A stretch of 63,750 bases of DNA, counting the filler, from Aduncisulcus paluster (taxonomy: Eukaryota): the NCBI GenBank assembly GCA_024181965.1. It is 26 parts of 26 records of this genome, joined end to end, with 100 filler letters (N's around TTAATTAATTAA, not from the genome) between each part and the next. Parts side by side here need not be neighbours in the genome. Positions count along the whole stretch, not along the records: positions 2,064 to 3,669 come from BQXS01009782.1; 25 more parts are not named here. One strand, written 5' to 3'. The notes under the pieces are model-generated. The model did not search any database and was not told the DNA's origin. It was given only the letters and a program-made list of their open reading frames with translations. Below are positions 30 through 47,910 of this stretch, in pieces; the first letter of the stretch is position 1, and every line of letters begins with the position of its first letter. A program made the translations under genes and the position numbers.

Positions 30-1963
30 TCACTCAATAACCTTCAAGAACATTGTTTTGATTTCATCAATAACTCCAAACATCTCTGCACAATGGGGAA
101 GGAATGGTTTCCTCTCTTCGACATGTTGAATAGCATGAGACAAGGATACACGTGCACTGTTCTCCATGTGCATCAGTTCATGGTGCAACTTATCACACAC
201 GAGGACACACACAGTCTCACGAGTGTCAACTTGAACAAGGGCAACATGACTGGACAGGATCAGAGGTTTCGAAAGAATGCCGTTGGGGATGGCTTTACCA
301 GAATCTTTAATCCCACCAACATCCACAATGGTATTATCAATCCCCCAGATAGAAGAAAAAGAAACAGAATCAAAGTAAGTTTGACGTGGATTATGTGGTT
401 GTGTATTCCAGATATACTCGGATAATGGGAATAATCTCTCAGACTTTGGAGCAGTGAAGTCAGTAAAACAACTGATTGATGTAGAACTACCAAATCCGTA
501 AGATACATTTGTTCTTTCTCCACACAACTCCTTGCTATCATACAACACAGCATCACACACACCATTGGAATACATTGATGGGGCATCTGGTAAAATGATC
601 CATTCGTATTCTTCACCAAATGCTTCCACATGTGGGAGACACGTGGTCAAGGCAGGGATGGAAGAAATGAGAGTGTTCACTTTCATGCAAATATCATTCA
701 CTTCACACATCAGAGCGGATAGCTCACTTGATGTCCTGGACGAACCTGAAAGGGAACAAGCTTTACGCATCATGTAGTTGTATAATAGTGAGGCCATCTT
801 AAGCATCTCACCTTTCAGAGCATGTTTGTGGAGAAGTGGACTATCGAAGTTCCATTGCCCATGAGTGATACAACGGGGGAGGTTGAACAGTGTCGTTGGG
901 ATAAGTGGTGTGGATTCAACATTCCCATCAGAAAGATCAGTCTCGAATAACGCAGCATATTGAACGTTGAACAAACGATAACATCCAATGAATGGGATAT
1001 TTGCATACACATCCGCATACCACTCTCCATTCTTCGCTTTCATGCACAGTCCAGAAATATTTCCATCACTCAGCATACCATACACACTGTAAGGCCACAA
1101 TGGCATGAATGATTGTCTTGGCGGACATAGCTTGGTGTAGATGGAACTCAGTTGAGCACATGCAGCACTGTATGACACGGATCCACATGAAGCACGCCAG
1201 TCAACCAAGGCTGCATGAAGTTTTCGTAGAACGGCAAGAGGCATCTGATCAAAGGAAGTCTTCTCAAACGAACCAATGTACATGGACCCACTGTTCACGA
1301 AGAAAGAACAACTATACTTCTCAGAAGGGAAAGAGGACATGTCCACAACATCCTTCATGAAGGGATGGAAGTTGGTAGGGGAGTCAACTATCTGACGACC
1401 AAAAGGAACTGGACCTGTCGCTGAAAACTTCCCATCGACTTTGAATGTGCCTATTGTTGCCTCCTCAGAGAAAGGGAATGAATATTTGCTCCATTGGATA
1501 ACAGACATATCAACCATATCTTGAATATCGGGCAGAACTTCAACAGGACATTCCTTTTCAGAATAAAGAATCTCAGATCCAAAGGGTTTATGGCCATAGG
1601 CATCAAAACTCAAAGCTTTCACACATGATGGTTTCTTCAAAGAGCTAGAAGCCTCAATTCGAGTGATAAGAGCTTTTCCATACACACTTGCGGGCTTTGA
1701 CTCTACTGCAGGAGCAGTAGGGAGTGCACCACTTCCAGTTTGTCCAAACCCACCAAACCCACCACTGGGCTGTCCGAATCCCCCACTGGGCTGTCCGAAT
1801 CCACCGAATCCCCCACTTGGTTGTCCGAATCCACCGAATCCCCCACTGGGTTGACCAAAGGAGAAACCAGATGTTTGGACAGGATTCTTTGTTGACATGA
1901 CCTTTGAATACAAATCCGAAATAACTCCCATTGGTTTGCTCAGATCTTCTCCAGGACTGGACT
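30..1963 (-). CDS. Eukaryotic hypothetical protein with an N-terminal GGFGQPS (FG-like) repeat tract; 5' partial
   Basis: 633-aa ORF. The frame stays open upstream of ATG 1931 to the contig edge (SSPGEDLSKP). No recognisable catalytic motif. Confidence 0.7.
1740..1870 (-). repeat. Coding tandem repeat (GGFGQPSGGF)n with 21/30-nt units
   Basis: Repeated ccgaatccaccgaatcccccactgggctgt-like units on the + strand. Confidence 0.9.
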
Positions 1964-2063: not shown

Positions 2064-2912
2064 AAAGCTGTGAATACCAGATATGAACGTTACTTCAAAT
2101 GTACCAACAGTATCTTTTCTGAGGAACTCCCCGGAGAGAATCAGGAACAGTATGCGACTGGTGCTGCTCGAAGTGGCGACAATGTTTACAACTCTGTTTT
2201 GACCTTTGGTCCGCGCAGGCGGAAGACCTTAACCAATTCTGATTGGTCTTATATGATCAACTTGCGTTACGGCTTGTTAAAAGAACCAAACAGTAAGGGT
2301 AACTGCCCTCTTTGTAAGGCTAGGAACCCGAGGTTAGGTCACCACTGTGTCTGCAAAGCGAATTCATCTGCGAAAATGAAACGTCATGCACACATCCAGA
2401 AGGCGACTGCTAAGGTTTTCGACTACTCTGGCATGGTCTCGGTATATGAGGACGTCACCTATTCCCATATTAATACTAATGGTAGACGCACTCATATCCC
2501 TGACTTCCGAGTTGAGGATCCCATGGGCACTCGCACGGGAGCAATTGTGGATATTGTTGTGACTGATTTATGGCGGACTGGTGAGCCTACCATGACAGGG
2601 GAGAACTCCTTTGTCTATGGTGCTGATGCTCAAAAGTGGGCTGCAAGGAAAAGAAGAGAATATGCAGGCGTTGACAAGAGCTTGCCATTGATTGCTTTGG
2701 CTATTGAGACCTCTGGACTCATAGATACTGAAGCGTATTCTGAAATGAAACGTCGTTTGACCCCCAGACTTGTAAAGAGGTGGAAGTTTGAGGTTGGCCT
2801 TGCCTTAATCAAATGGTGTAATATTGCCTTTTCTTGTGCTCATTCTACTCACTTTCAGGCTCTTAGACGCCTGAATCCTGAGTTAACTGATTTGATTGAT
2901 TACGATAAGTGA
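2064..2912 (+). CDS. C-terminal part of an RLE-type non-LTR retrotransposon ORF (zinc knuckle + restriction-like endonuclease); 5' partial
   Basis: LRYG...CPLC-x7-HHCVC knuckle, then RH, E, then IPDF...VDIVV (PD..D core), then RKRREY and LAIETSG. This is the motif order of CRE/NeSL/HERO/R2-type elements. The frame is open to the contig edge. Confidence 0.85.
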   Translation, partial: KAVNTRYERYFKCTNSIFSEELPGENQEQYATGAARSGDNVYNSVLTFGPRRRKTLTNSDWSYMINLRYGLLKEPNSKGNCPLCKARNPRLGHHCVCKANSSAKMKRHAHIQKATAKVFDYSGMVSVYEDVTYSHINTNGRRTHIPDFRVEDPMGTRTGAIVDIVVTDLWRTGEPTMTGENSFVYGADAQKWAARKRREYAGVDKSLPLIALAIETSGLIDTEAYSEMKRRLTPRLVKRWKFEVGLALIKWCNIAFSCAHSTHFQALRRLNPELTDLIDYDK

Positions 2913-3319
2913 TCTTAAAACCTTGAGGGTGGTGATATTGGCTAGGCGTTTGGGGGAGCTGTAGTACTGGTGTATGCTATTTTCTCCTTTTGCTACCTGT
3001 TGGTGTTGTTCTTTGTCTTACGTTAGAGCTGATCATTAATCTTGTTGTGATAGATGTGTTCGACACGATTCCTTTTGTATCCATGCATGTATGTGCGATA
3101 GTCCCCTGACTTTTAGTCTTTTGACTGATTGTCTTGTACTTTGTCATGTACTTATGTTTGGAGTCTTGGCTTCTGACTGGTACCAATTTCCTTTTAAATT
3201 TGCCGAACTAATATTGCCATGCCCTCTGTAGGTTACTTCTATTTAAATGTACTGATTTCTATTTTTTATTATGATGCAATCTGTGATTGTCGTTTCCACG
3301 AGTGTGATGGAATAAATTA
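2064..3319 (+). mobile_element. 3' end of an RLE non-LTR retrotransposon (ORF + ~400-nt 3' UTR ending AATAAATTA)
   Basis: The ORF is followed by T-rich non-coding sequence ending in AATAAA immediately before a half-tRNA. The right boundary is inferred from the tRNA junction. Confidence 0.65.
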
Positions 3320-3364
3320 TGACTACGGATCAGGAGGTTGCAGGTTCAAGTCCTGCTGTGTCCG
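3320..3364 (+). pseudogene. 3' half of tRNA-Arg(ACG); 5' acceptor strand and D-arm missing
   Basis: TGA-CTACGGA-TCA anticodon arm (ACG at 3325-3327), T-arm GCAGG-TTCAAGT-CCTGC, acceptor 3' strand TGTGTCC+G. No GGACACA or D-arm directly upstream. Confidence 0.85.
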
Positions 3365-3769
3365 AATTTATCCGTTATTACAAGGTTTTATCACTCTTTA
3401 AACGTATTTCTAAGCTTTCCCTAAGGTTTTAGTCAAAGCGTTTGCGAATAGCTTCAACCGTTCGGTAGATAAACATAAAACATCAGGTTTTTACAGCTCC
3501 CCAAGCTTTTACCAAAGTTTTATTACCCTATTACTATAAATCATTGCTGCTTCTGCAGATAACTTTTCTACTTCTGAATATTCTCTTTTTTACATTTCTA
3601 TCTCCTTTTTCTTACTTCCATCTAATTTTTTACTAATGAATTCATCTTTTTCCGCTCAAGTGTTAAGCGNNNNNNNNNNNNNNNNNNNNNNNNNNNNNNN
3701 NNNNNNNNNNNNNTTAATTAATTAANNNNNNNNNNNNNNNNNNNNNNNNNNNNNNNNNNNNNNNNNNNN

Positions 3770-5225
3770 AGGTCAGAGATGGAGTTGTCACTCAGAGTCA
3801 GATGAGTCACACCGGAGAGACCAGGCTGGAGTGAAACGATGGAAGGGTCAGAGATATCATTGGAGGACAGATCAAGATGGGTCAGAGTGGATGACAATGG
3901 ATATACTTTCGTTCCATCATCATCACTGCTGACACACTGACCACTGCACATGGCAATGTTGTTCAGCAAAGAAGTGAATGATGACAGATCGGAACCAATG
4001 GAATCATCACTCCCACTGATCTCCAAGGAACGCAACGAGCACAGACCAACACAGTACGATTCAGAGATTCCATTCCAGCGTGAAGTGTCAGACTCAAGAT
4101 CCATCTTCAGAGCACCGACAGCATCCGTCAATGTGCTCAGAAGTGATACATCCATGTTTTCAAGTGAATCAAGCTCAAGCACATACAACGAGGATAAGGA
4201 AGCAATGGGAGATAGATCAGAGATGAGAGTGTTCCCGGATTCAAACGAAAGGATCCTAAGGTGTTCGGCATATTCAAGCCCTGAGAGGGAAGACACAGTG
4301 GCTGGGATGGTGAGAGATGTGATGGTGGAGAGATCATCCACAGTCAGTGAGGAGAGAATGTTTTCGTCAGAAGAAGAAGAGAAACATAACGATTGAACAT
4401 CTGCATCACCATATTCATCAGCATCATACATGGACTCACAGATAGCTTCAACGAGGGCAACATCCATCCCAAGGGAAGACAGCAATGTCACTCCACTCTC
4501 AATCTCACACAGGTCACCAGTCATGAGAGGTGACGATGAAGATGAATAAGAGCAGGTGCATGTGTGTGTTTCAGAGTTACAAGGATTATTATTGGTTCCA
4601 TCATCATCATTCCCACATTCATACCCATACTCATCAACAGGACATTTGGACAGACAATCATCGCCATACCATCCTTCAGAACAGATAATAGATATGTCAT
4701 TTGTAGACATAGTAGATGCATCAGATCCTATTCCAATGCACTTCTTGTTGGTTCCTGAGAGACTAAGACCAGAGCACATGGCATACAAGGATGCAGTTCT
4801 ATCGTCATCATCATCATCATCATCATCACCATCAATGAGCACACACGATAATGAGGAGGAACTCACATCGGTGTAACACGATGAACAACATGTTGCAGAA
4901 TACTCGCCAGGCCAGATCTCAGAGCAGACGATATTAGATGAGAGTGAGATGGAAGATGATGTAGAATCATCAATACACAAACATTCATTGTTATCGAAGA
5001 TAGAATACCCATCTTTTGTGAACGGTGATAATGGCGATGTGAAGACAGACACGAAAGCATTCACTTCCTCTTCATCATCCATGCCACAGACATTGTTGAC
5101 ACGCAGATCAAGTGTGGTGAGAGTGGATGAGAGCAAGAACAATGGAGATGGATCAGAGATGTTGTTATCACTGGCATCCAGATACTCTAACATCGGGAAC
5201 AGGATCGTGAAAGAGGAAGAGTTAG

Positions 5226-5260
<35 letters not shown>

Positions 5261-6138
5261 ACTTCATAGAGCCACAACAAATCATCCACTCCATGCCACT
5301 CACATCAAGCTCTGTCAAACACGATCCGAAAATGGATGCAACATCAGAGAGTGAGAGAGTTGGGGTGTCGTCACTTCCACCAATACCAACAATGCCTCCA
5401 ATGCCAATGGAAGTGAGTGTGTCAGACAAAGATGATATCTGACTCAAATCTGTTACAGCTGTATCAGAGATGTTCAGGGCAGTCAGATGGTTAAATTCAC
5501 TCAAGGAGTCAAGAACAGAGATGTCACTCAACAAAGTGTTTCCACTCAGATCAATGCATGCAATGTTCGTGAGATATTCGAGTCCACTTAGATCGGTGAT
5601 GTTACAATTCGACAGATCAAGACATGACATTTCTCCATCCTCTTCACCCGACACAATCCCTGCAAGATCACTCTCAGTCAGATCGTCACATGTGGAGGCA
5701 TGCCCATCAACAAGTGAACACAGAGCAGAGAGAAGGTTGGCATCAGGGATTGTGACATATTGACACGCATCACCATGGAAGCCAGATACAACAGAGCAAT
5801 CACAAGTATGTGTTGAATCGTCACATGTTCCATACTCATAGCCTCCACATTCCTCAGTGCCTTGGAATGGGCATTCATCCTGACACTCATCGCCATACCA
5901 CCCTTCAACACATCCACTCACGATAGAAACGGTTCCATCGGATCCATCATTGTATATAGCCACACACTGAGTGTTGGGATTGGACTCGATGCCAGACAAA
6001 CATGTTAAGGAAGAAATGTCAACATCAGATCCAAAGTTCACACATGCTAATGATTCGTCAGAGTCAGAATTGGAGTAATCACGATAGCTGAAGATGGCAC
6101 AATCTGCACGAAACTCGCCACTCCACACCTCTTTGCAC
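3770..6138 (-). CDS. EGF-like/cysteine-rich + internalin-type LRR protein; partial at both ends, frameshifted near 5290
   Basis: ORFs 5187-6128 and 3718-5289 carry C..GWYGD.C EGF motifs, an IPDANL LRR cap and LxxLDLSxNxIxD repeats. Adding one G at ~5292 gives the continuous reading LDVSGMGVDDLLWL. Confidence 0.85.
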
Positions 6139-7703: not shown

Positions 7704-10270
7704 CACCAAATTTTCCAATGGGCTCACATCAGATATTTGATTGTTGTACAAAATCAAATAGGTTAGATTCACCATTCCAGATAAATCGGAAATGTCAGAT
7801 ATCTGATTTGAATATAGGTATAGAATATTCATATCATTCATTCCAGAGAGGGCAGAGATATCTGAGATATTGTTGTTGTAGAGATACAAATACTGTAAAC
7901 TTATCATGTTTATCAAAGAATCAATTGAAGCAATTTCATTATATGCAAGATGCAAATATGTTAGCTTTGTTAGAGAATTCAAATAGGAGATATCTGATAT
8001 ATTGTTCACCTGGAGTTCTAATCTCACCAATTCTTCCATTCCAGATAGAGCAGAGATATCCGAGATATTATTGTAATAGAGATACAACTCTGTCAATTGG
8101 AGCATATTTGAGAGAGATGAAATCGATGATATTTGGTTATGTCCAAGATGAAGATATGTGAGATTAGTGATGTTGACAAGAGGTGAAACATCTGAGATAC
8201 TGTTTGAATAAAGATATAGAGTCGTTAAGTTTATCATTCCTGATAGAGCAGAGATATCCGAAATATTATTGTCATAGAGATACAGAGATACTAAATCATC
8301 CATGTTTGACAAAGAATCAATGGAAGTAATCTGATTAGATCCAAGTTCCAAGGTTGTCAATTTCACCAAATTTTCCAATGGGCTCACATCAGATATTTGA
8401 TTGTTGTACAAAATCAAATAGGTTAGATTCACCATTCCAGATAAATCGGAAATGTCAGATATCTGATTTGAATATAGGTATAGAATATTCATATCATTCA
8501 TTCCAGAGAGGGCAGAGATATCTGAGATATTGTTGTTGTAGAGATACAAATACTGTAAACTTATCATGTTTATCAAAGAATCAATTGAAGCAATTTCATT
8601 ATATGCAAGATGCAAATATGTTAGCTTTGTTAGAGAATTCAAATAGGAGATATCTGATATATTGTTCACCTGGAGTTCTAATCTCACCAATTCTTCCATT
8701 CCAGATAGAGCAGAGATATCCGAGATATTATTGTAATAGAGATACAACTCTGTCAATTGGAGCATATTTGAGAGAGATGAAATCGATGATATTTGGTTAT
8801 GTCCAAGATGAAGATATGTGAGATTAGTGATGTTGATAAGAGGTGAAACATCTGAGATACTGTTTGAATAAAGATATAGAGTCGTTAAGTTTATCATTCC
8901 TGATAGAGCAGAGATATCCGAGATATTGTTGTTGTAGAGATACAAATACTGTAAACTTATCATGTTTATCAAAGAATCAATTGAAGCAATTTCATTATAT
9001 GCAAGATGCAAATATGTTAGCTTTGTTAGAGAATTCAAATAGGAGATATCTGATATATTGTTCACCTGGAGTTCTAATCTCACCAATTCTTCCATTCCAG
9101 ATAGAGCAGAGATATCCGAGATATTATTGTAATAGAGATACAACTCTGTCAATTGGAGCATATTTGAGAGAGATGAAATCGATGATATTTGGTTATGTCC
9201 AAGATGAAGATATGTGAGATTAGTGATGTTGACAAGAGGTGAAACATCTGAGATACTGTTTGAATATAGATGTAGAGTTGTTAGGTTTATCATTCCAGAT
9301 AGAGCAGATATTGAGGATATATTATTGACGGCAAGATGCAAATATGTCAATTCCACCAAACTTTCCAATGGACTCACATCAGATATTTGATTGTTGTAGA
9401 GATACAAATACTGTAAACTTATCATGTTTATCAAAGAATCAATTGAAGCAATTTCATTATATGCAAGATGCAAATATGTTAGCTTTGTTAGAGAATTCAA
9501 ATAGGAGATATCTGATATATTGTTCACCTGGAGTTCTAATCTCACCAATTCTTCCATTCCAGATAGAGCAGAGATATCCGAGATATTATTGTAATAGAGA
9601 TACAACTCTGTCAATTGGAGCATATTTGAGAGAGATGAAATCGATGATATTTGGTTATGTCCAAGATGAAGATATGTGAGATTAGTGATGTTGACAAGAG
9701 GTGAAACATCTGAGATACTGTTTGAATATAGATGTAGAGTTGTTAGGTTTATCATTCCAGATAGAGCAGATATTGAGGATATATTATTGACGGCAAGATG
9801 CAAATATGTCAATTCCACCAAACTTTCCAATGGACTCACATCAGATATTTGATTGTTGTACAAATGCAAATACGTCAGATTCACCATTCCGGATAGAGCA
9901 GAGATATCCGAGATGTTATTGTCATAGATACACAGATATACTAAATCATCCATGTTTGACAAAGAATCAATGGAAGTAATCTGATTAGATCCAAGTTCCA
10001 AGGTTGTCAGATTCACCAAATTTTCCAATGGACTCACATCAGATATTTGATTGTTGTACAAATGCAAATACGTTAGATTCACCATTCCAGATAGAGCAGA
10101 GATTGAGGATATATTATTGATGCCAAGGTGTAAAAATGTCAATTCCACCAAATTTTCTAATGGGCTCACATCAGATATTTGATTGTTGTACAGATGCAAA
10201 TATGTTAGATTCACCATTCCAGATAGAGCAGAGATATCTGAGATAATATTGTCTCGCAAGGTCAACTCAA
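7704..10270 (-). repeat. Higher-order 66-bp-unit repeat; a near-identical multi-unit block occurs four times at spacings 660, 396 and 462 bp
   Basis: The marker agcatatttgagagagatgaaatcg starts at 8101, 8761, 9157 and 9619. Confidence 0.92.
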
Positions 10271-10695
10271 CAAGCTGCTCCTCAACACCACTCAAAGAAC
10301 CAAGAACACTATGAGAGTCTGTCAATCCAGTGTTTCTCAGATCAAGCTTTGTTAACATTGTGAATGCGGATAAAGACACATCCTCAGATAATACAATGTT
10401 CTGCAGATACAACGTGGATAAGGATGACGTTGGAAGATACCCAATCTCTGTCGAGCCAATCTCAAGGTCAGATGTGGATGTGCCATCGATGGTGAGTGAT
10501 GCAAGTTCTGTAGCACAAGACAATCCTTCGAAGGTGTCGACAGAGGATGCACTGAGGGAAGTCAACGACAGCATGTCAATATTGGTTATGACTGGACAAT
10601 TAGCAGGAAGCCCAATAGAACTAACGAGAGCAGAACACACAGCAACTCGAAGGTTTACATCGGGGATAGAAACATCATGGAACTCACAGTTAGTA
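7704..10695 (-). CDS. Internalin-like LRR protein (~39 x 22-aa repeats); partial at both ends
   Basis: LxxLxLxxNxIsDisxLxxm/l 22-aa units after a CEFHDVSIPDVNLRVAVC cap. Same family as the 3770-6138 gene. Confidence 0.95.
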
Positions 10696-10797
10696 NNNNN
10701 NNNNNNNNNNNNNNNNNNNNNNNNNNNNNNNNNNNNNNNTTAATTAATTAANNNNNNNNNNNNNNNNNNNNNNNNNNNNNNNNNNNNNNNNNNNNCC

Positions 10798-13290
10798 ACT
10801 GGTGTTCCCAAAGGTGTTGCGGTGACTCAGCACAATGTGATTCAGCTGTTCGACGAGCTGGATATCGGCGTGCAACTGGCTCCGGATCAGGTGTGGACAC
10901 AGTTCCACTCTTATGCGTTCGATTTCTCGGTGTGGGAGATCTGGGGTGCGCTCCTGCACGGCGGCCGGTTGGTGGTGGTGCCCGACTCGGTGGCGCGCAC
11001 GCCGGAGGACTTCCATGATCTCTTGGTTGGCGAGGGTGTCACGGTGTTGACCCAAACACCCTCCGCGGCCGGGATGCTCTCACCGGACGGACTGGAGTCG
11101 ACGTCGTTGGTGATCGGTGCCGAGCCCTGCCCGCCCGAGTTGGTTCGTCGGTGGGCCCCGGGACGGGTGATGGTCAATGTCTATGGCCCGACCGAAACAA
11201 CCATGTGGGCCTGCAAGAGTGAGCCGCTGCGCGCGGACTCGTCGGGTCAATCGGTGCCGATCGGTTCGCCGGTCGCGCACGCGGCGTTCTTTGTGCTCGA
11301 CAGGTGGCTGCGCCCGGTGGCCGACGGTGTTGTCGGCGAGTTGTATCTGGCAGGTTCCGGAGTCGGATCCGGCTATTGGCGCCGCACGGCGTTGACGGGG
11401 GCGCGGTTCGTGGCCTGCCCGTTCGGGAAGCCAGGCGACCGTATGTACAGGACCGGGGATTTGGTGTCGTGGGGTTCGGACGGGCAGCTGCAATACCTAG
11501 GGCGAGCCGATGAGCAGGTGAAGATTCGCGGATATCGGATCGAACTCGGCGAGATTGAGGCCGCACTGGTGCGACTGGATGGGGTGCGGCAGGCGGCGGT
11601 GATCGCCCGTGAAGATCGTCCCGGTGACAAGCGACTCGTCGCCTACATCACCGGCACCGCGGATCCACTCGGCGCTCGTGCCGCACTGGCCGAGCAACTC
11701 CCGGGATACATGGTGCCGGCAGCGGTGGTGGTGATGGAGACGTTACCCCTGACGGTGAATGGCAAGTTGGACAAGCGCGCGCTTCCCGCACCCGAATACC
11801 GCGATCTCGGTGCGGATTACCGAGCACCATCGACCCCCGTGGAGGAGGTTTTGGCGGGGATATATGCCCAAGTGCTCGGTGTTGATCAGGTCGGCGTGGA
11901 CGACTCGTTCTTCGACCTGGGCGGCGACAGCATTTTGTCGATGCAAGTTACCTCCCGTGCGCGCGCAGCGGGTGTCTTGTGCCGGCCCCGTGACATCTTC
12001 GTGGAGCAGACCGTGGCCCGGCTGTCGAGGGTGGTGACGCTGGCCGACAACGACACCCGGAATGTCGATGAAGGCATCGGACTCGTCGAGGCGACTCCGA
12101 TCATGCACTGGCTCCACAGCGTGCAGGGCCCCGTCGACCGCTTCAACCAGACGGTGGTGCTGCAAGCCCCGGTGGGGGCCGATGAGGCCGACATCGTCGT
12201 TCTGCTTCAGGAGCTGCTGGACCGACACGCGACTCTGCGGCTGCGCGCCGAGAGCAGTGATAGCGGCTGGCTACTGCGCGTGCCCGACAAGGGATCTGTC
12301 GATGCCCGAGCGTGCATTCGTACCGTCGAAGCGCTATCCGATGAAGCGTTGGGGGCAGCGTGTTCGCGGTTGGATCCGGGAGCCGGAGTGATGCTCAGCG
12401 CCGTGTGGGCCCCCGGCGGAGGCCAGTTGGCGTTGACGATTCACCATCTCGCGGTGGACGGGGTGTCATGGCGAATCCTGTTAGAGGACTTGAATATTGC
12501 CTGGGTGCAACGCCGCAACGGTCAGGACGTGGTGCTGGCGGGTTCAGGGACATCCTTCGCTCGATGGGCGTCCCTGCTGCACGAGTACGCACAACGTGCG
12601 GGTGTGGTGGAGTCGGCGGATATCTGGCGATCGGTATCCGCGGTTCCGCCGGCGCTGCCTGTGGTGCGGCCCGGCGTGGACACCTACGCCACCGCCGGCT
12701 CGTTGTCGGTATCCCTGGATGCCGACGTCACACGGATGCTGCTTAGCGAGGTTCCGGCGGCTTTTCATGCTGGGGTGCAAGATATCTTGCTCATCGCGTT
12801 CGGATTGGCGTGGAACGAATTCTTGGGCGCAGGGGGAGCTCCCATCGGTATCGACCTCGAAGGCCATGGCCGCGCCGAAGAATTGGTCACCGATGTTGAT
12901 CTGTCGCGGACGGTGGGATGGTTTACCGCCAAGTACCCGGTTGCACTTTCGATGGGCCAACTCACATGGGCGCAGGTGATCGACGGCGGCCCGGCTCTGG
13001 GCGCCGCCGTGAAGGCAGTCAAAGAACAGCTTCGGGACCTCCCGGATCCACTGACCTACGGCCTACTGCGGTATCTGAATCCGGAAGTCGGCCTCCCGGA
13101 TTCAGATCCGACTATCGGCTTCAACTATCTCGGACGCTTGGGCGCAGGAGCGACGGACGTCTCCGACGAGCTGTGGCGGATCAGCCAGGAGAATTTGTTA
13201 TTGACCGGTGCATCCTCAGCGATACCGATGCCCATGATGCACACCGTAGAGGTCAACGCCGGCGTCCTGGAATCAAGTGTGGGGATGGGG
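10798..13290 (+). CDS. Non-ribosomal peptide synthetase fragment (A-PCP-E), mycobacterial type; partial at both ends
   Basis: A-domain motifs [40 protein letters not shown] and [17 protein letters not shown]. Epimerase motifs [22 protein letters not shown] and FNYLG. Confidence 0.97.
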
Positions 13291-13390
13291 NNNNNNNNNN
13301 NNNNNNNNNNNNNNNNNNNNNNNNNNNNNNNNNNTTAATTAATTAANNNNNNNNNNNNNNNNNNNNNNNNNNNNNNNNNNNNNNNNNNNN

Positions 13391-13648
13391 GTTGCGCCAG
13401 ATCGTGAGGCGCGTCAGTTCGGGCGCAATGCCCCCCTCGGCCAGAAGCTGTTTCACGATCCGAGCGGCGACGGTGGGGCGATAGGGTGCGTGGCAGTTGT
13501 CGGCCCGACGGCGGGCGTCAACGATCTTCTTCCCGCCGTGGTAGAAGCAGACGTTCAGGCCGCGCACGGCGATGGCTCCGCAGCCTTCCTTGCCGCACGT
13601 CCGTTGCCCGCCATTCCCGAACTGCGTCCGCGCCCACGAAAACCGCAT
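13391..13648 (-). CDS. Small Cys/His zinc-finger-like phage protein (C-x4-C-x9-C-x2-HGG; HGGxSTG-like); 3' partial
   Basis: The minus frame reads RTCGKEGCGAIAVRGLNVCFYHGG, while the + frame of the vWA ORF has stops at ~13482 and ~13542. Confidence 0.55.
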
Positions 13649-13700
13649 GAAGATCGTGGCTTTCCTGTTCGCCGGGCTGAACAACCTGCAACAGCAGCAA

Positions 13701-13732
<32 letters not shown>

Positions 13733-14951
13733 GCAAGACGACCAGCAGGGCGACCAGAAGGGCGACCAGCAGGGCGACCAGCAGGGCGACCAGCAAGACG
13801 GCCAGCAAGACGACGGCGACGACGGCCAGCAAGACGACGGCGACGACGGCCAGCAGGGCGAAGGCGAAGGCGAAGGCGAAGGCAAGGGCGAAGGCGACCA
13901 GCAGGGCGAAGGCAAGGGCGACGGTGACGCGGACGGCGACGACGACGACGACGCCAACGAAAGCAAACCCGGCAAAGCTGGCGGGCTGCAAGACAACGGC
14001 AAGCCCGTGCCTGTCCCGCCGCCTGCGATGGACCTGCAAGCGGCCCGCGATCAGGCGCTGGCGGACGCGGCCCCGGACCTCAAAGGGCAGAAAGTCAGCT
14101 CGACCCGGACCGGGACCGCGCTGATTGCCAGCGACGCGGAGGCCGAACAATACCGCCGCCTCCTGCTCAACGCGGGCAGTTCGAACGGCTCGGCGCAGCA
14201 ATCCCGCGCCGCCGCCTCGGCCATTGACGCCCGCGCCCTCGCGGACGCGGCCCGGCGCGGCCTGCAATCGGTTGAGAAGATCCAGCAAGAGCGCCGTTTG
14301 CAGGTCGGACGGCTCGACCGTCGCGGCCTGACCCGCGCCACGATGGGCGCGCAGGACGTCTTTGCGCGTCGCACGGTGACGCCGGGCATTGATACCGCTG
14401 TTCTGGTGATGGTGGACGGCTCAAGTTCGATGAATGACAGCGTAAGCCTGCGAGGGCGTTACGGCTATGTGTCCGCCACGCGCCACACGGCCACAATGGG
14501 CGCGCTTGCGCTGATCCTCCCGGCGCTGCACCGCGCGCGGGCGCAGGTCGCGGCCATGATGTTCACGAGCTACGAGCAACGGTTGTATTGGCTGAACCAG
14601 TGGCACGAGGTGCCGACGACGGCGAACATGCTCGCAACGCACGGCCCGACGGCAGCATATGGCGGCACGCCCATGTTGCTCGAAGCCCGCACGGCAGTTG
14701 CGCAACTCAAGGCACGCCGGGCGACGCGTCGCGTCTGCCTGTGGCTCGCTGACGGTGAACCGGGCGACGCCGCCCACCAAGTCCAAGCCGAACTTGAGCG
14801 CGGACGCCGGGCGGGCATCGAGCACTTGGCGATTGGCCTGCAAGCGCCGCTCATCCGTGATCTGTTCGGCCCCAACTACTCGGTGAACCTCTCCGATCTG
14901 GGCAAACTGCCTAACGCGTTCCGTGACCTCCTGTTGGGGGATGCGAAATGA
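13647..14951 (+). CDS. CobT-like vWA-domain protein with Q/D/G-rich linker; N-terminal domain apparently missing
   Basis: GRLDRR, DVF.RR, VLVMVDGSSSM (MIDAS DxSxS), GGTP and LADGEP, preceded by polyQ/GDQQ/GEGE low-complexity sequence. Confidence 0.85.
13689..13955 (+). repeat. Coding microsatellite / low-complexity tract: (CAG/CAA)n, GDQQ, QQDDGDDG and GE repeats
   Basis: Seen directly in the sequence. Confidence 0.9.
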
Positions 14952-15052
14952 GCCGCGCCCCGCGCCCCGGCATGATCCGGCATTTCCTTGAATGTCTCGT
15001 TGGCGGCCTGTCGATCTGCCTCGCCCTTTGGGTGCTGTTGATCCTGTTCTGA
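14948..15052 (+). CDS. 34-aa single-TM small protein
   Basis: ATGA overlap with the vWA stop. Reads MSRAPRPGMIRHFLECLVGGLSICLALWVLLILF and is followed by a terminator. Confidence 0.6.
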   Translation: MSRAPRPGMIRHFLECLVGGLSICLALWVLLILF

Positions 15053-15080
15053 CCAGCAACGACCCACAAAACGCTGATTT

Positions 15081-15107
15081 GGCCGGGCAATGCCCGGCCT
15101 TTTCTTT
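15081..15107 (+). terminator. Rho-independent terminator
   Basis: GGCCGGGCA-A-TGCCCGGCC hairpin followed by TTTTCTTT. Confidence 0.85.
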
Positions 15108-15173
15108 GCCTGTGGTGCTGTTCGCGCATATCCTCCTGCGCAATCACCCACCAACTGCACGAGAGCGCACGAC

Positions 15174-15578
15174 ATGGCCCGCAAAGCATCCCGCAAGCCC
15201 GATCCCGCCGCCGATCCCGGCCCGCTCGACCTCGATCCCCTCGCGCCCGCCGGGGGCGGCTTTGCCGATCTGTTGGCCGATCCAACTGACACGCAACCGA
15301 CAGGCAACCGTGACCCTTCGGATATATTCGAATTTGATGATATGTCCAACGCATCCGATACGGACCTTGCGCGCTTTGCTTTGCGCCTGATTTTGCAGGA
15401 TAAAACCGCCCCGGCAGCATCGCGCGCGGCGGCGGCTCGGACCTTGGCGGAAATGGCGGGCGCGCTCGGACGGCACGCGCCGCCGCCCTCGAAAGCCTCC
15501 AAGCCGATCACGGAAATGACCCGCGAAGAACTGGAAGCGGAGTTGAACGCGGGAGATTCCAGCGCACCCGCCACCTAA
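15174..15578 (+). CDS. Phage protein, candidate terminase small subunit
   Basis: ATG 15174 with GAGAG RBS. The C-terminal AASRAAAARTLAEMAGALG...ITEMTREELEA pattern resembles TerS-like proteins (inference). Confidence 0.5.
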   Translation: MARKASRKPDPAADPGPLDLDPLAPAGGGFADLLADPTDTQPTGNRDPSDIFEFDDMSNASDTDLARFALRLILQDKTAPAASRAAAARTLAEMAGALGRHAPPPSKASKPITEMTREELEAELNAGDSSAPAT

Positions 15579-15780
15579 ACCCCCGAAAACATTAATGAAG
15601 TCACGCCCACCATTAGGGAGAGTTGGGCGTGATCTGCCCTCGAACTGGCCCGATCCGCCACGTCCGCGCCCCGCGTCCACGCGGCCCCGGACGCGGCCCG
15701 ACCCCACCCCCCGGCCTCCCCCGCGCGCCGCGCCGTTTATATTATCGGGTCCAAATACAAAGCGCGGATTTTCCTGACTT

Positions 15781-15797
15781 TTTGACACTTTAGACAA
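15781..15797 (+). promoter_or_regulatory. Repeated phage intergenic motif TTTGAC-N4-TAGACAA, copy 1
   Basis: A second copy at 25896-25912 matches 13 of 17 positions. Both precede structural gene blocks. Confidence 0.5.
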
Positions 15798-15924
15798 ACG
15801 AAACGAGGGGGAAGCCTCGAAACCCCCGGTTTCGTGGGGAAACCCCTAGCTTTCGCTTCATTGCCCCGGCCTTTGTTGGTTACGTCTGTTGGCAGAGCCA
15901 ACAAACTCCCAGCAAGGGCGAGCA

Positions 15925-18900
15925 ATGACCGAGCCAGTTCCGACCAAGCGCGACCGGGAATATTCGTTCCGCAACTTTCAGGTTGGGCAGCCGCAGGCTC
16001 CCCTGCCCGGCGATAAGCTGGACAGCGAACTTGACGAAACCAATTCCGCCCTCGCCACGCTGATCGACTTCGTGCGTCAGGCCATTGCCGACGACGGCAA
16101 GGTCCGCATTGATTCCGTGGACTTCACCAGCTTCAAGGGCGAGCAAGGCGACCCCGGCCCCGTCGGGCCTGTCGGCCCTCTCGGTCCCGTCGGCCCGCAG
16201 GGTCCGACCGGCCCCGTCGGTCCGACCGGCGTTCAGGGTCCGCAAGGCCCCGACGGTATTCGCGGCCCGCAAGGTCCGCAGGGCCTGATCGGCCCCACGG
16301 GTCCGCAGGGTCCGCAGGGCTTGGCAGGTCCGCAAGGTGCCGTCGGCTCGACCGGCCCGGAAGGTCCGCGCGGCCCCGTCGGCGTGGAAGGCCCCACCGG
16401 CCCCGAAGGTATTCGCGGCCCGGAAGGCCCCATCGGTCCCGAAGGCTCCGCCGGTCCGCAGGGTCCGCAGGGCCTCAAGGGTGTGCAGGGCGATCAAGGC
16501 ATCCCCGGCCCGCAGGGTCCGTCCGGCGTGGCAGGCCCCGCCGGTGCGCAGGGTCCGCAAGGCCCGACCGGCGATCAAGGTATTCTCGGCCCGCAAGGCC
16601 CCTCCGGCGTTGCCGGTCCTGCTGGCGCGCAAGGCCCCGAAGGCCCGACCGGGCCGCAGGGTCTGATCGGCCCCACCGGCGCGGCTGGTGCGGCTGGCCC
16701 GGCAGGCGCTCAAGGCCCCGAAGGCCCCACGGGTCCGCAAGGCGCTGCCGGTCCGCAAGGCCCGCAGGGTGACGCAGGCGTGGCAGGCCCGCAGGGCGCG
16801 GCTGGCGTGAAAGGTTCGCAGGGCGACGCGGGCGCAATCGGTCCGCAAGGCCCGGCTGGCGTCGCTGGCCCGGCTGGTGCGCAAGGCCCCGAAGGTCCGA
16901 CCGGCCCGCAGGGCCTCGTCGGCCCCACCGGCTTGACCGGCCCGCAAGGCTCGGCAGGTCCGCAGGGTCCGACCGGCCCCACCGGCGCGCAGGGCCTCGC
17001 AGGTCCGACGGGTCCGGCAGGCCCGGCAGGTCCGCAGGGCGTGGCCGGTCCGCAAGGCACCGTGGGCGCGCAAGGCCCCGAAGGCCCGATTGGTCAGTCC
17101 TTCGTGCCGGACGAGGCGGGCCTTACCGCTGACCGCGCGGCCTACGACGCGGAACCTATGGGCTTCGCCTTCCTCGATACGCAGGCGGGGATTATCTACT
17201 GGAAACTCTCGAACACGCTGGCCGATTGGTCGGCGGGCGTGAACTTCGGGCGCGGCCCGACCGGCGCGCAAGGCCCGGCAGGTCCGCAGGGCGACCAAGG
17301 CCCCGTCGGTCTGACCGGCCCGCAGGGTGACATTGGCCCGCAGGGTCCGCAGGGTGACACCGGCCTGACCGGCCCGCAGGGCATTCAAGGCCCGCAGGGC
17401 GATCAGGGCGTCCAAGGCCCGCAGGGCGACCAAGGCCCCACCGGCCCGACCGGCCCGCAAGGTCCGCGCGGCTACACCGGCGACACCGGCCCGCAGGGTG
17501 TGCAGGGCACGCAAGGCCCGCAGGGTGTGCAAGGCCCCATCGGCCCGGCTGGCCTCTACTGGCAGGGCGCTTACGCCGCAGGCACCGCCTACGCGGCGAA
17601 CGACGTCGTGTCCTACTCGGGCAGCGCCTACGTCGCCAAGCAGGCGACGACCGGCAACGTGCCGACCAACACGACCTATTGGAGCCTGCTCGCGCAGAAG
17701 GGCGCGACCGGGGCCACCGGCGCGCAGGGTCCGACCGGCCCCACGGGTCCGCAGGGCCTCAAGGGCGACACCGGCGACACCGGCCCCATCGGCCCGCAGG
17801 GCGTCGAAGGCCCCACGGGTCCGACCGGCAGCCAAGGCCCGAAGGGCGACAAGGGCGACACTGGCCTGACCGGCCCGCAGGGTATTCAAGGCCCGACCGG
17901 CGCGACCGGCGCGCAGGGTCCGATTGGCAACACCGGCCCGCAAGGCGCGACCGGCGCGACCGGCCCGCAGGGTATTCAAGGCCCGCAGGGCAACATCGGC
18001 CCGGCGGGCCTGACGTGGCTCGGGGCCTACTCCGCCGCGACCGCCTACGTCGCGACCGACGCCGTGTCCTACGGCGGGCGCGCCTATGTCGCGAAGGGGG
18101 CCACCACCGGCAACCTGCCGACGAACACGACCTATTGGGATTTGGTGGCCGACAAGGGCGCGACCGGCGCGACCGGCGCGCAAGGCCCCATCGGTCCGCA
18201 AGGCTCCCTCGGCCCGACCGGCCCGAAGGGTGACACCGGCGCGACCGGGGCCACGGGTCCNNNNNNNNNNNNNNNNNNNNNNNNNNNNNNNNNNNNNNNN
18301 NNNNNNNNNNNNNNNNNNNNNNNNNNNNNNNNNNNGGGCGACACCGGCCCCACCGGCCCGCAAGGCCCCGACGGACCCGAAGGTCCGCAGGGTCCGCAGG
18401 GCAACACCGGCTTGACCGGCCCGCAAGGCCCCGCAGGTCCGACCGGCGCGACGGGTCCGCAGGGTTCGTCCGGCCCGACGGGTCCGACCGGCCCCGCTGG
18501 CGCGGACGGCGCGGAGTGGCACAACGCGGGCAGCGCGGCCCCCACCGGCACGCTCGGCGTGATCGGGGATTGGGCGCTGCGCTCGAACGGCTACGTCTAC
18601 GAGAAGACCGGCACGTCCACGTGGACCTATCGGTATTCGATCCAAGGCCCGACGGGTCCGCAGGGTCCGACCGGCCCCACGGGTCCGCAAGGTGCGCAGG
18701 GTCCGCAAGGTATTCAGGGCCAGACCGGCCCGACCGGCTCGACCGGCCCCGTGGGTCCGGCAGGCGTGGACGCGTCCGCACCCATCGGCGCGTTCGCATG
18801 GTTCGCGGGCACGACGGCCCCCGACGGCTGGCTGATCTGTGACGGCTCGCCCGTTACCAGCCTCTATCCCGATCTGCGCGCCCATCTGACCGCGCAAGGC

Positions 18901-20094
18901 TCGCCCTTCGGCAACAACGGGTCCGACCCGCTGCGCCCGGACCTTATGACTGTTGGCCGCTTCGTGCGCTCCATGACCTCGACGCTCGCGCTCGGGACGT
19001 ATCAGGACGACGCGATCCAAGATCACGACCACAGCGCCGGTCTTGCGCACTACAGCGGCTTCACCGCGCTCTTTGGGCGGTCTTCTGCCCTTGGCTATGG
19101 CCGCCCCACCGGCGACACGGCGGACGCAAGTTCGACGTCGCCCTATACGTCGAAACTGTCTGATCGCCTTGACGCGGTAACGGCTCGCTTCGCGGACGAA
19201 ACCCGCCCGAAGAACGTCGCGCTCCTGCCGATCATCAAAGCCTACGGCGCGGTGAACATCGAAGGACAGGCCGACCTCTCGCAACTCCTGAACGCGGTCG
19301 CGACGCAGGCGGAAGCCGAAGCAGGGACCGACGACACCAAACTTATGACGCCGCTGAAAACGGCGCAGGCCATCTTGGCGGTCGGCAAAGGCACCCTCTA
19401 CGACTTCCAAGAATTTGCAGCCAGCGGAACTTGGACGAAACCGGCGAACGCGCGGCCTGACGATATTGTCGAAGTCCACGTAGTCGGCGGCGGCGGCAGC
19501 GGCGGGCGCGACAGCCAAGGCACGGCCACCGGCGGAGGCGGCGGAGGCGGCTCCGTTCGCCGCTTCACGATGGCCGAATTGGGCGCGACCGAAGACGTGG
19601 TTGTGGGCGCTGGGGGGCTGGGAACGTCGGGGGCTGGGATCGACGGCGGCAGCAGTTCGTTCGGCACCCCGTCCTCCGGCGTTGAAGTTCTTGGTCTGTT
19701 TGTTGTTGCGAGCGGCGGCAAAGGCGGCTGGACGAACATCTCGTCCGGCTCCGCTGCGGGCGGCTCGGCGGGCTACCACAGCACCACCACCATCAACACC
19801 GAGACTTGGGCCTACGGCGGGATCGGGTCGCAAACCGGCCACGGCGGATCGTCCATGTTTGGCGGCGGCGGCGGCGGCGGCACCGGGGCTAACCCTCGCC
19901 TCGGCGGACAGTCGTTCTACGCAGGCCAAGGCGGGTTCTCCCCCGGAACGGGCGACGCGACCACCGCGATGATCGACGGCACGTGGCCCGGCGGCGGCGG
20001 CGGAGGGATCAACACTTCGGCGTCTGGCGACACGCGCGGCGGCCACGGCGCGGACGGCTGCGTCCGGGTCTGGTGCTATCGGAAGGAAACCTAA
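15925..20094 (+). CDS. Collagen-like tail fibre protein with two aromatic-rich CBM-like inserts, tail-collar domain and Gly-rich C-terminal domain (internal N gap 18261-18335)
   Basis: Long (Gly-X-Y)n tracts, [22 protein letters not shown] tail-collar motif, [33 protein letters not shown], and a [10 protein letters not shown]...GGGGSGG Gly-rich domain. Confidence 0.92.
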
Positions 20095-20558
20095 TGCGGC
20101 TCGCTGAAATCAAAGACGGCATCGTCGTCAACATCATCAAGGTTGACCCGGCTAAAATCCCCGCCTTCGCGCAGGGCTGGCCGGAAGCGACCGAAGGCGC
20201 GAGCGTCGGAGCGACCTACGACGGCGCGGCCTTCACGCCCGCCCCCGAACCTGACCGCCTCACCCCGTGGCGTGACGAAGCGACGCTGACCAAGGCGCAG
20301 TTCTGTCTGGCCGCCAAGCGCCTCGGGATGCTGGACGCAACCGAAGCCGAAGTGGCCGCCCAAGGCGGCTGGCCGGACAGCTTCGCGGACGCGCTCGCCG
20401 CCCTGCCCGTGACCATCGACCCGGCAGATGCCCGCATCGTCTGGGCCGCCGTGGCCGTGGTCTACCGCAACGATCCTGTTTTGAACGCCGTCGCGGACGC
20501 GAAAGGCATCACCCAAGACCAGCTCGACGGAATGTTTGGCTGGCAGACCTCGAACTGA
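20094..20558 (+). CDS. Tail-fibre-associated (assembly/chaperone-like) protein
   Basis: TAATG coupling to the fibre gene, [24 protein letters not shown]...G.TYDG..F.P motif. Confidence 0.7.
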   Translation: MRLAEIKDGIVVNIIKVDPAKIPAFAQGWPEATEGASVGATYDGAAFTPAPEPDRLTPWRDEATLTKAQFCLAAKRLGMLDATEAEVAAQGGWPDSFADALAALPVTIDPADARIVWAAVAVVYRNDPVLNAVADAKGITQDQLDGMFGWQTSN

Positions 20559-20569
20559 CGGAGAACCCC

Positions 20570-20788
20570 ATGACGACGATCACGGCAGAGAACGTCCACG
20601 AATACGGGATCGGCCAGAACTTCACCGGCACGATCTACGCCCGCGACCTCGGGCAAGTCGTCTACGGCGACGACGTGGGCCTGCTCACGACCAGCAACCC
20701 CGAGAAGTCCGGCGGCACCGTGCCTTACTGGAAAGAATACTCTTACGACCGCTGGTGGAAAATCGGCCTCAAGGCCACGTCGGCCTGA
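20570..20788 (+). CDS. Hypothetical phage protein (72 aa)
   Basis: GGAGA RBS, phage-like codon usage, fits between its neighbours. Confidence 0.75.
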   Translation: MTTITAENVHEYGIGQNFTGTIYARDLGQVVYGDDVGLLTTSNPEKSGGTVPYWKEYSYDRWWKIGLKATSA

Positions 20789-47909: not shown

Positions 47910-47910
47910 T

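Follow-up and report, generated by a model that had tools for sequence, protein, structure and literature searches.

A candidate R2-like retrotransposon joined to the 3' part of a tRNA-Arg(ACG) gene in the genome assembly of the protist Aduncisulcus paluster

Results and Discussion

We identified the 3' part of a retrotransposon whose last base is directly followed by the anticodon-proximal and 3' portion of a tRNA-Arg(ACG) gene. The evidence below makes it probable that this is an R2-like, active element of low copy number whose specific insertion site lies in the tRNA-Arg(ACG) genes of Aduncisulcus paluster or a close relative, and most likely the element targets the tRNA-Arg gene rather than having reached it by accident. 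The window, that is, the whole stretch of DNA analysed, comprises 63,750 nucleotides, in which positions 2064..3669 form a separate contig of 1,606 bp; the joints with the unrelated contigs on either side are artificial N44-TTAATTAATTAA-N44 linkers.

The 3' junction within the tRNA gene

The element closes with a 3' UTR of 407 nt (2913..3319, plus strand) that ends AATAAATTA, carries no poly(A) and contains AATAAA at 3311-3316. Its RNA fold gave a z-score of -2.86 against 100 shuffles, one of which was equally good. With zero spacer and on the same strand, the UTR is followed by nt 29-73 of a tRNA-Arg(ACG) gene (3320..3364), comprising the anticodon loop CTACGGA with the anticodon ACG at 3325-3327, the variable loop, the T arm with the B box, the acceptor strand TGTGTCC and the discriminator G. 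When the searched stretch was set to start at 3320, this piece matched the Rfam tRNA family RF00005 as a 5'-truncated hit over model positions 28-71 of 71, scoring 30.5 bits (gathering score 29, E = 1.3e-4). The single result of an Rfam scan of the whole contig was YrlA on the T arm, which at 18.7 bits stayed below its threshold of 69; no tRNA was returned. The sequence-only reading, which preceded this work, had described a 3' UTR of about 400 nt abutting the 3' half of tRNA-Arg(ACG) in the same orientation, and these results bear that description out.

The junction (3319..3320, plus strand) was placed by alignment with six intact tRNA-Arg(acg) genes. The 37-nt core at 3320-3356 occurs exactly in six metagenome loci, and in all six ARAGORN called an intact tRNA-Arg(acg) gene around it. 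The intact genes read ...CC|TGACTACGG and the window reads ...TA|TGACTACGG, and from this difference homology begins at tRNA nt 29, directly after the last element base. The junction thus lies within the anticodon stem, on its 5' strand and 5 nt ahead of the anticodon, which is where the cut had been predicted. The 5' half of the gene is absent, as had also been noted: ARAGORN called no tRNA at the junction, the Rfam match is 5'-truncated, and none of the seven GGACACA sites of the window offers a plausible 5' half. An uninterrupted tRNA-Arg(ACG) gene with exactly the same 3' half was found in no contig.

After the discriminator G at 3364 comes AATTTATCC, so that no CCA is encoded, and the tRNA piece keeps its genomic trailer; both features mark it as derived from a gene and not copied from a mature tRNA. 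A retro-chimera on a mature tRNA was ruled out on the same sequence. We also ruled out a tRNA-derived SINE, because only nt 29-73 are present, ARAGORN makes no call and the upstream sequence is the UTR of a protein-coding element.

The downstream flank of the split gene (3365..3669, plus strand) has 32% G+C and contains no ORF and no RNA family; its G+C resembles that of the low-GC bacterial contigs of the window. This resemblance, together with the mixture of protist and bacterial contigs in the window, one of which (2.1 kb) is 98% identical to the prokaryote genome G001, could point to an artefact, either a chimeric contig that joins a retroelement to the tRNA of a food bacterium or of another locus, or a cDNA chimera formed by template switching or tRNA priming. 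However, the 1,606-bp contig had no match in G001, and neither the junction nor the 45-nt tRNA half had an exact match in prokaryote genomes representing 185,579 species (one genome per species). The lack of CCA and the genomic trailer speak against copying from a mature tRNA, and the junction is spanned at high depth by contigs built independently from two runs. An artefact of this kind is very improbable.

The encoded protein

The 3' part of the element's ORF spans 2064..2912 on the plus strand and translates into 282 codons plus a TGA at 2910-2912, open at the contig edge. The sequence-only reading had seen a zinc knuckle and a PD..D endonuclease in this ORF, and both are present. A CCHC-type zinc knuckle (2304..2354, plus strand) has the spacing C81-x2-C84 ... 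H93/H94-C95-x-C97 and is followed by an R107-H108 motif (2382..2387, plus strand) that matches the RH of R2Bm and of P0125, a relative discussed below. The endonuclease core P146-D147 ... D163-I-V-V-T167 lies at 2499..2564, and a helix with K196...Y200 and the strand P-L-I-A-L-A-I-E215-T-S-G218 lie at 2649..2717, both on the plus strand. In the alignment of the query with two relatives, the invariant columns are C81, G92 and H93 in the knuckle, H108 after it, D147, D163 and T167 in the core, and K196, Y200, E215, T216 and G218 in the helix and strand. D163 (domain position D115) and Y200 (domain position Y152) showed no variation in 70 sequences.

Sequence searches with the ORF tail returned 0 Pfam families at E <= 10, and nothing significant among PDB sequences with phmmer and a three-sequence profile. 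With a profile of 70 relatives, the top PDB sequence match was R2Bm 933-985, the zinc knuckle and RH region, at an E-value of only 0.43. An AlphaFold model built on the three-sequence alignment was discarded (pLDDT 33), and the model used had a pLDDT of 78. In a Foldseek search of the PDB with this model, R2 proteins accounted for all seven matches with E <= 0.001 (8e-8 to 1.5e-5), and the first match after them had an E-value of 0.05. VIA-align placed the model on R2Bm 892-1107, which comprises the zinc knuckle and restriction-like endonuclease; the R2 rows had Z-scores of 13.3-15.4 over 184-196 residues (rmsd 3.7-3.9 A), and the rows after them were PD-(D/E)XK nucleases with Z <= 8.8. As modelled, the ORF tail comprises three parts of an R2-like protein, namely the C-terminal linker, the CCHC knuckle and the restriction-like endonuclease, and the order of a CCHC knuckle followed by a PD-(D/E)XK endonuclease, by which RLE-type elements are recognised, is present in it.

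Position 2064 is a contig edge and no biological start, which was not visible in the sequence-only reading. Because the contig ends there, the reverse transcriptase (RT) region of the element would lie beyond it. Among 1.84 billion representative proteins, the sole strong relative of the ORF tail was P0002 (E = 3.8e-13), which also contains RVT_1 (71-288), located upstream of the part homologous to the tail; P0125 (1,115 aa) likewise combines an RT with the same tail. Furthermore, the 2,946-nt record 9 of run contig set X2, described below, ends on 2064..2511, and its length and overlap extend the element by about 2.5 kb further 5', to at least 3.75 kb in all. The complete element presumably encodes an RT and an N-terminal DNA-binding part. 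A word-indexed search found no longer relatives, an RT-region search with P0002 gave only four matches and no named retrotransposon family, and a comparison of the ORF tail with metagenome contigs gave 45 pattern matches, 0 of which were confirmed. With one clear relative in 1.84 billion proteins, the endonuclease tail samples almost unexplored sequence space.

Copies, variants and flanks

To compare copies of the element, we used contigs of two runs of one sample (X1 and X2, the latter perhaps an RNA run), which is possibly the window's own source, so that the contigs are not independent of it. Such run contigs drop rare variants, and only one junction was readable base by base. X2 record 13 bridges this junction from 3057 to 3369 with eight substitutions and one gap relative to the window, differences that identify it as a copy other than the window's. 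The junction is thereby real in independently built run contigs. Two UTR variant classes (X2 records 10 and 12; X1 records 5 and 6) both stop at 3086, and record 13 overlaps both classes by 30 nt. On the other side, X2 records 14 and 15 both begin at 3340, again with a 30-nt overlap with record 13. Record 15 covers 3340..3669 with 0 differences from the window, and the run contig adds 709 nt beyond it. The alternative flank begins after 3369 in X2 record 14 and in a loose end of X1, TTCTTTTAGA; both flanks share AATTT after the discriminator, and the alternative one goes on TTCTTTT. We read this arrangement as a fork: beyond 3369, which is 5 nt after the tRNA ends, the sequence continues into two different flanks.

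In these contigs of two runs of one sample, the same junction is shared by two flanks and by UTR variants of at least two diverged kinds. The UTR variants differ by 2-7%, whereas neither the tRNA half nor the 330-nt flank shows any difference. Among the 13 substitution sites between copies, nine are in the 407-nt UTR and four in the 849-nt ORF part, and all four ORF sites are synonymous third positions. Such synonymous-only changes indicate lineages that, to judge from their sequence, would be competent for retrotransposition. Diverged variants that share a junction, with a fork only after the tRNA, are what site-specific insertion predicts.

One chance or ancient insertion into a tRNA-Arg gene that was later copied with its flanks by segmental or tandem duplication, leaving an element that is not or no longer tRNA-specific, could also produce several copies with one junction. 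Contig depth fits such a history: in X2 the identical flank of record 15 has a depth of 484, close to the 330-570 of the element, and in X1 the flank, at 6,850 and more, is at or above the 3,800-5,500 of the element, all of these values being contig depths and not copy numbers. There are also only two flank classes, both with AATTT. However, a random strike within a tRNA gene of about 73 bp is a priori very unlikely, and the divergence of the UTR beside an unchanged tRNA half and flank favours repeated insertion over co-divergence. The synonymous ORF changes and the fork 5 nt after the tRNA end likewise speak against a single duplicated insertion, which we consider unlikely.

The same fork bears on whether the tRNA part (3320-3369) is instead the element's own tail, which an ancestral insertion into a tRNA gene would have supplied through read-through or 3' transduction and which would now be carried to other sites. 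The X2 junction unitig is unbroken to 3369 and forks only there, and AATTT, the 5 nt after the discriminator, is common to both flanks, which would also fit a carried tail. AATTT, however, also opens a T-run trailer of the kind usual behind tRNA genes, with the alternative flank continuing TTCTTTT, and R2-type elements give exactly such a picture at their true targets. A weak hint in the same direction is that the X1 depths across the tRNA bin add up to 39,300, far above the depth of the element, although other tRNA genes contribute to this sum. Such a tail would still require an ancestor that targeted tRNA-Arg, and we regard this history as decidedly improbable. Repeated insertion into tRNA-Arg genes remains our preferred reading.

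Comparison with known elements

Most RLE elements have multicopy RNA genes, including tRNA genes, as their specific targets, as excerpts of two papers agree (PMC4640811, PMC5035012); the sequence-only reading had likewise named multicopy RNA genes as targets. Its further statement that insertion inside a tRNA body is rare for the class is contradicted by the excerpts of PMC4640811, in which NeSL-1_TV is tRNA-Pro-specific (Kojima and Jurka 2015), and LIN15_SM and LIN25_SM of the planarian R5/LIN lineage are tRNA-Arg-specific and tRNA-Glu-specific, respectively. On these excerpts, tRNA targeting is already known for the RLE class, and the element adds another case.

R2 (R2Bm, R2Tg, R2Pm) shares with the element the C-terminal linker, CCHC knuckle and RLE fold, a structured 3' UTR without poly(A) and a precise 3' junction in a multicopy RNA gene. 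In contrast, its target is 28S rDNA and not a tRNA-Arg gene, and over the C-terminal part, to which the comparison was confined, identity is 12-16% with no significant sequence match. Assignment to the R2 clade proper by the 28S rDNA site was rejected, the downstream target being tRNA-Arg(ACG) nt 29-73. The NeSL/Utopia/LIN clade, as far as the excerpted descriptions go, holds known tRNA-specific families, and the element shares with it a tRNA-gene target. NeSL-1_TV, compared by its excerpted description only, is an RLE-group, tRNA gene-specific element but targets tRNA-Pro instead of tRNA-Arg. We take its suffix TV to denote Trichomonas vaginalis, a metamonad, in which case the probable hosts of both elements are metamonads. 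No named Trichomonas protein occurred among the relatives of the ORF tail in the 1.84 billion representatives. LIN15_SM and LIN25_SM, also compared by excerpted description only, are RLE-group elements with tRNA gene targets, LIN15_SM sharing tRNA-Arg, but they have an animal host. GilM, GilT and GilD (Genie) of Giardia have a fornicate host, as is probable here, and were reportedly described by Burke et al. in 2002 as RLE-bearing, early-branching non-LTR elements; they are said to reside in their own tandem arrays or near telomeres, unlike the present element in its tRNA gene.

YURE had been named in the sequence-only reading as a tRNA-Arg-targeting element. The sea squirt elements of this name (YURECi, YURE_CSa, YURE-2_Cis) are RLE-group and related to Utopia/NeSL, but in the excerpts of PMC4640811 they prefer satellite repeats derived from U2 snRNA, not tRNA-Arg. 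Dada DNA transposons, according to excerpts of PMC8869645, likewise exploit multicopy small RNA genes, and tRNA genes are among their insertion sites, with the anticodon arm used by several families. They differ in that they are DNA transposons, which encode a DDE transposase and produce target-site duplications, and in an orientation opposite to the tRNA, whereas the element has the same orientation as the tRNA. A Dada transposon, which would be marked by a DDE transposase and terminal inverted repeats, was ruled out because the encoded protein is R2-like.

Source of the contig

The element probably comes from a free-living relative of Giardia. Its host is probably the fornicate protist Aduncisulcus paluster or a very close relative, as suggested by the neighbouring contigs in the same window, which also holds bacterial contigs, and by the relative P0002, which together with P0007 stands for a second family in the species. 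We found no second copy of the contig in the rest of the window by blastn or tblastn, and a neighbouring ORF gave no usable match in the protein atlas. The Aduncisulcus genome announcement does not report a repeat analysis in its main text (PMC9933649), and our literature search found no paper combining Aduncisulcus and a retrotransposon.

Proposed mechanism and implications

The mechanism proposed here is drawn by analogy with R2; its nick position, 5' junction and target specificity are our inferences, as is the host named above. The element protein would bind a tRNA-Arg gene, and its C-terminal PD..D endonuclease would nick the antisense strand of that gene at the boundary of nt 28/29 in the anticodon stem. 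From the freed 3' OH, the element RNA would then be reverse-transcribed, starting at the end of its structured 3' UTR, which lacks poly(A) (target-primed reverse transcription). Immediately 3' of the element this would leave tRNA nt 29-73, followed by the trailer of the gene itself. The insertion would put at least 3.7 kb between the A box and the B box and thereby kill the gene copy, a loss that other tRNA-Arg copies may buffer.

Site-specific RLE retrotransposons are a model for target-primed reverse transcription, and every new target specificity informs how such proteins read DNA. R2 proteins are reportedly being put to use for RNA-templated transgene insertion at multicopy loci (PMC11371274). 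A tentative extension of our reading, about which we are of two minds, is that the element represents a deeply divergent, still active R2-like lineage of free-living fornicates that gained its precise tRNA-Arg(ACG) nt 28/29 specificity independently of the planarian and Trichomonas families. In that case it would supply a new natural pair of protein and 3' UTR for RNA-templated insertion at a tRNA gene, and no target-specific element would have been described before it in Carpediemonas-like organisms. A tRNA-Arg-specific fornicate family, if real, would be a third distant lineage with tRNA targeting by the RLE class and would support an early specialisation of RLE elements for multicopy RNA genes in eukaryote history. 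On a practical level, the element is a repeat at which this draft assembly breaks, and tRNA gene counts will be misjudged if half-genes are left out.

The 3′ junction in a tRNA-Arg(ACG) gene

The contig at 2064..3669 (1,606 bp, 41% G+C, separate from its neighbours) contains a genuine and well-preserved 3′ junction of an R2-like retrotransposon with a restriction-like endonuclease (RLE) in tRNA-Arg(ACG). As the sequence-only reading had described, an ORF tail running on the plus strand from 2064 to a TGA at 2910-2912 (282 codons, open at the contig edge) is followed on the same strand by a 407-nt 3′ UTR (2913-3319; AATAAA at 3311, last bases AATAAATTA) and then by the 3′ half of the tRNA without its 5′ half. 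Because the contig boundary lies at 2064, this position is an assembly edge and not the start of the element.

The tRNA piece at 3320-3364 matched positions 28 to 71 of the Rfam tRNA model (30.5 bits, E 1.3e-4, flagged as 5′-truncated), exceeding the gathering score of 29. ARAGORN called no tRNA at 3320-3364, and an Rfam scan of the whole contig gave no tRNA match; half a gene would not be expected to give one. Six exact matches to the 37-nt core (3320-3356) occurred in metagenome contigs, all inside intact tRNA-Arg(acg) genes. Aligned with such genes, TGACTACGG is preceded by CC in the genes versus TA in the window. This places the break in the anticodon stem, on its 5′ strand, after tRNA nt 28 and before nt 29, in agreement with the earlier placement about 5 nt upstream of the anticodon (3325-3327). 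After the discriminator G (3364) the sequence reads AATTTATCC and not CCA, indicating that the piece came from a gene rather than a mature tRNA. The 5′ junction was absent from the window, where both the tRNA 5′ half and a second element copy were sought.

Identity of the ORF tail

The ORF tail matched zero Pfam families and nothing significant among PDB sequences. HMMER, run exhaustively against 1.84 billion representative proteins, returned four matches at E <= 0.001. The closest relative was P0002 (E 3.8e-13), a partial protein of 738 aa, 29% identical, that carries Pfam RVT_1 at 71-288 and whose C-terminal 213 residues align with the ORF tail; P0005 (E 8.8e-4) is an endonuclease-only fragment. 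Residues C81, G92-H93, H108, D147, D163, T167, K196, Y200 and E215-T216-x-G218 are invariant in all three sequences, which is the pattern of the R2/NeSL/CRE restriction-like endonuclease. P0003 and P0004 are internally repetitive and matched in 7-8 short pieces; both were rejected as spurious.

A profile search added 117 relatives, nearly all fragments, of which 68 with good query coverage were aligned together with two typed domain sequences. Using this alignment, which is dominated by P0005-like sequences, AlphaFold modelled residues 48-281 with a pLDDT of 78.1 and a pTM of 0.73. All seven Foldseek matches in the PDB at E <= 0.001 were R2 proteins from zebra finch, turtle and silkworm (E 8.3e-8 to 1.5e-5), the eighth rank falling to E 0.05. 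VIA-align superposed the model on the same seven entries (Z 13.3-15.4, rmsd 3.7-3.9 Å, 184-196 residues) at R2Bm 892-1107, which corresponds to the C-terminal linker, knuckle and RLE of R2Bm; the next rows were generic PD-(D/E)XK nucleases (influenza PA-N, Prp8 endonuclease-like domain) with Z <= 8.8. The invariant motif columns and the R2 fold match of the predicted structure uphold the zinc-knuckle and PD..D endonuclease ORF proposed from the sequence, and its assignment as a predicted R2-type endonuclease is well supported. From P0002, from P0125 (1,115 aa, reverse transcriptase plus the same tail) and from record 9 of run contig set X2, which extends 2,498 nt upstream of 2064, we infer that a reverse transcriptase lies upstream in the element, beyond the window.

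P0002, P0007 and P0006 represent a second, very divergent RT+RLE family in Aduncisulcus paluster (29% identity in the endonuclease tail), annotated as hypothetical proteins on contigs of 2.2-3.6 kb. P0124, a fragment with 80% identity, is annotated as fused to a hAT-dimerisation-named protein. P0005 and P0008-P0123 (117 hits) make up a large family of ORF fragments that encode only a CCHC+PD..D endonuclease. Most lie on ENA contigs of up to 18 Mb, and one member comes from the moth Leguminivora glycinivorella; these are presumably tails of animal RLE retrotransposons outside Pfam coverage.

Other copies of the element

Two runs of one sample (contig sets X1 and X2) contain 80% of the element contig's sampled words. 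The comparison used contigs, not reads, and the sample is possibly the window's own source; the junction was thereby assembled independently, but the organism is not independently confirmed. X2 record 13 (312 nt), which is another element copy, crosses the junction (3057..3369) and differs from the window by 8 substitutions and 1 gap. At UTR sites 3112, 3121, 3238, 3243 and 3252, every run contig has the non-window base, and at 2597, 2609 and 2636 X1 has two variants side by side (depth 2,370 vs 1,228). A more diverged variant (X1 record 6, X2 record 12) shows 6-7 differences in 98 nt; the 30 loose letters before 2989 in this variant look like window UTR with indels.

The diverged and nearer UTR variants both stop at 3086, where record 13 starts, overlapping them by 30 nt. 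X2 records 14 and 15 share a start at 3340 and each overlap record 13 by 30 nt; we read this as the sequence simply forking after 3369. The window flank forms one branch (record 15, 1,039 nt, 0 differences over 3340..3669), and the other is a different sequence, present in X1 too as the loose end TTCTTTTAGA. Two variants meeting record 13, together with the fork, indicate at least two diverged element lineages with one junction.

The flanks diverge just 5 nt past the tRNA end. Since AATTT is common to both and the fork comes only after it, the fork position would also fit a tRNA piece that is the element's own tail, carried along with it. The contig depth of the flank was about equal to or greater than that of the element (depths are not convertible to copy numbers), a pattern that fits more target copies than insertions; a single insertion duplicated together with its flank would give the same relation and fits equally on flank depth. 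No uninterrupted tRNA-Arg(ACG) gene with this 3′ half was present among the run contigs listed, an absence that means little because contigs break at forks and most X1 records (74 of 82) lie outside those listed. Site specificity of the element for its target is most likely.

Of the 13 substitution sites, the 407-nt UTR carries 9 and the 849-nt stretch of ORF carries 4. All four ORF substitutions are synonymous third-position changes. This pattern points to a protein under purifying selection and, by extension, to an element active recently. The 3′ UTR folded somewhat better than its shuffles (z -2.86, 1 of 100 as good). About 45 nt past the tRNA end, the alternative flank (X2 record 14) has an inverted, gapped match to 3283-3337, which possibly represents a tRNA-like hairpin nearby. 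In a further X1 contig, agreement with the tRNA half stops at 3337, and the sequence goes on as GAAGCAGATAAGT.

Proposed mechanism and known tRNA-specific elements

By analogy with R2, we regard target-primed insertion into the tRNA-Arg(ACG) gene as the probable overall mechanism. The element protein would recognise the gene, its PD..D endonuclease would nick the antisense strand at tRNA nt 28/29, and the freed 3′ OH would serve as primer for reverse transcription starting at the end of the UTR, which lacks poly(A). An element inserted in this way would lie in the tRNA orientation, followed by nt 29-73 and the trailer of the gene, and the split gene, its A box to B box spacing lost, would be dead. 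Because the element sense strand has many T4-6 runs, a full-length template is unlikely to arise by RNA polymerase III reading through from the tRNA promoter.

Two papers acknowledge tRNA genes as a target class of non-LTR elements (PMC5035012; PMC8869645). Kojima and Jurka 2015 (PMC4640811) describe NeSL-1_TV as specific for tRNA-Pro genes and the planarian LIN15_SM and LIN25_SM as specific for tRNA-Arg and tRNA-Glu genes, respectively, and give the sea-squirt YURE families a preference for U2-derived satellites. By this account, the naming of YURE as a tRNA-Arg-targeting element in the sequence-only reading was wrong, and the description of tRNA-body insertion as rare for this class was overstated. 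Full-text searches found nothing on tRNA-specific RLE elements beyond these three papers, and nothing for Aduncisulcus with retrotransposon. Targeting of tRNA by RLE elements is already known; new here are the host lineage, the very divergent protein and possibly the target position within the tRNA.

Host and composition of the window

A. paluster is a free-living fornicate cultured with food bacteria. The element's host is probably this species or a very close relative: P0002 is an A. paluster protein, and an ORF on the contig next to the element (33-1931) clusters with proteins named for the species. The assignment is inferential because the window contains bacterial DNA too. The published draft genome comprises 25,863 contigs (N50 4.6 kb, 39.1% G+C; PMC9933649), figures in keeping with the window.

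The window is not one locus: about 30 short contigs, unrelated to one another (26% to 70% G+C), are strung together by N44-TTAATTAATTAA-N44 spacers (1964-2063, 3670-3769 and so on), and any spacer-crossing feature is artificial. The low-GC contig at 44381-46487 matches a complete prokaryote genome of 2.4 Mb (G001) at 98% identity; the contig's 716-aa ORF is, by eye, presumably a DNA polymerase III alpha subunit. A chimera of the element with bacterial DNA is unlikely: the element contig has no match in G001, and neither the tRNA half nor the junction had an exact match across 185,579 prokaryote species (one genome each).

Other contigs of about 30% G+C look bacterial (30408-32361, 37135-39078, 41288-61156), with long ORFs that we take by eye to be respiratory-complex-I-like and aconitase-family-like; these contigs probably come from food bacteria or from contamination of the protist culture. 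Several high-GC contigs carry genes for bacterial-type proteins. Contigs of 60-70% G+C with actinobacteria-like ORFs (10796-30307, 34057-37034, 39179-41187, 61257-62312) form a second bacterial component, with a tRNA-Gly(ccc) at 27564-27637 and large multi-pass membrane proteins at 34746-36948, presumably MmpL-like by eye.

On the contig neighbouring the element, a 633-aa ORF (33-1931, minus strand) with an N-terminal GGFGQPS repeat run matched no Pfam family; its exact sequence is present in public collections, where partial proteins named Aduncisulcus paluster share its 90%-identity cluster. Large leucine-rich-repeat proteins are encoded at 7704-10695 and 3770-6138 (both minus strand). One has 28 LRR_4 stretches in 979 aa, and the contig neighbouring it combines LRR and Cys-rich EGF-like modules with poly-Asp runs; the two gave no further domains.
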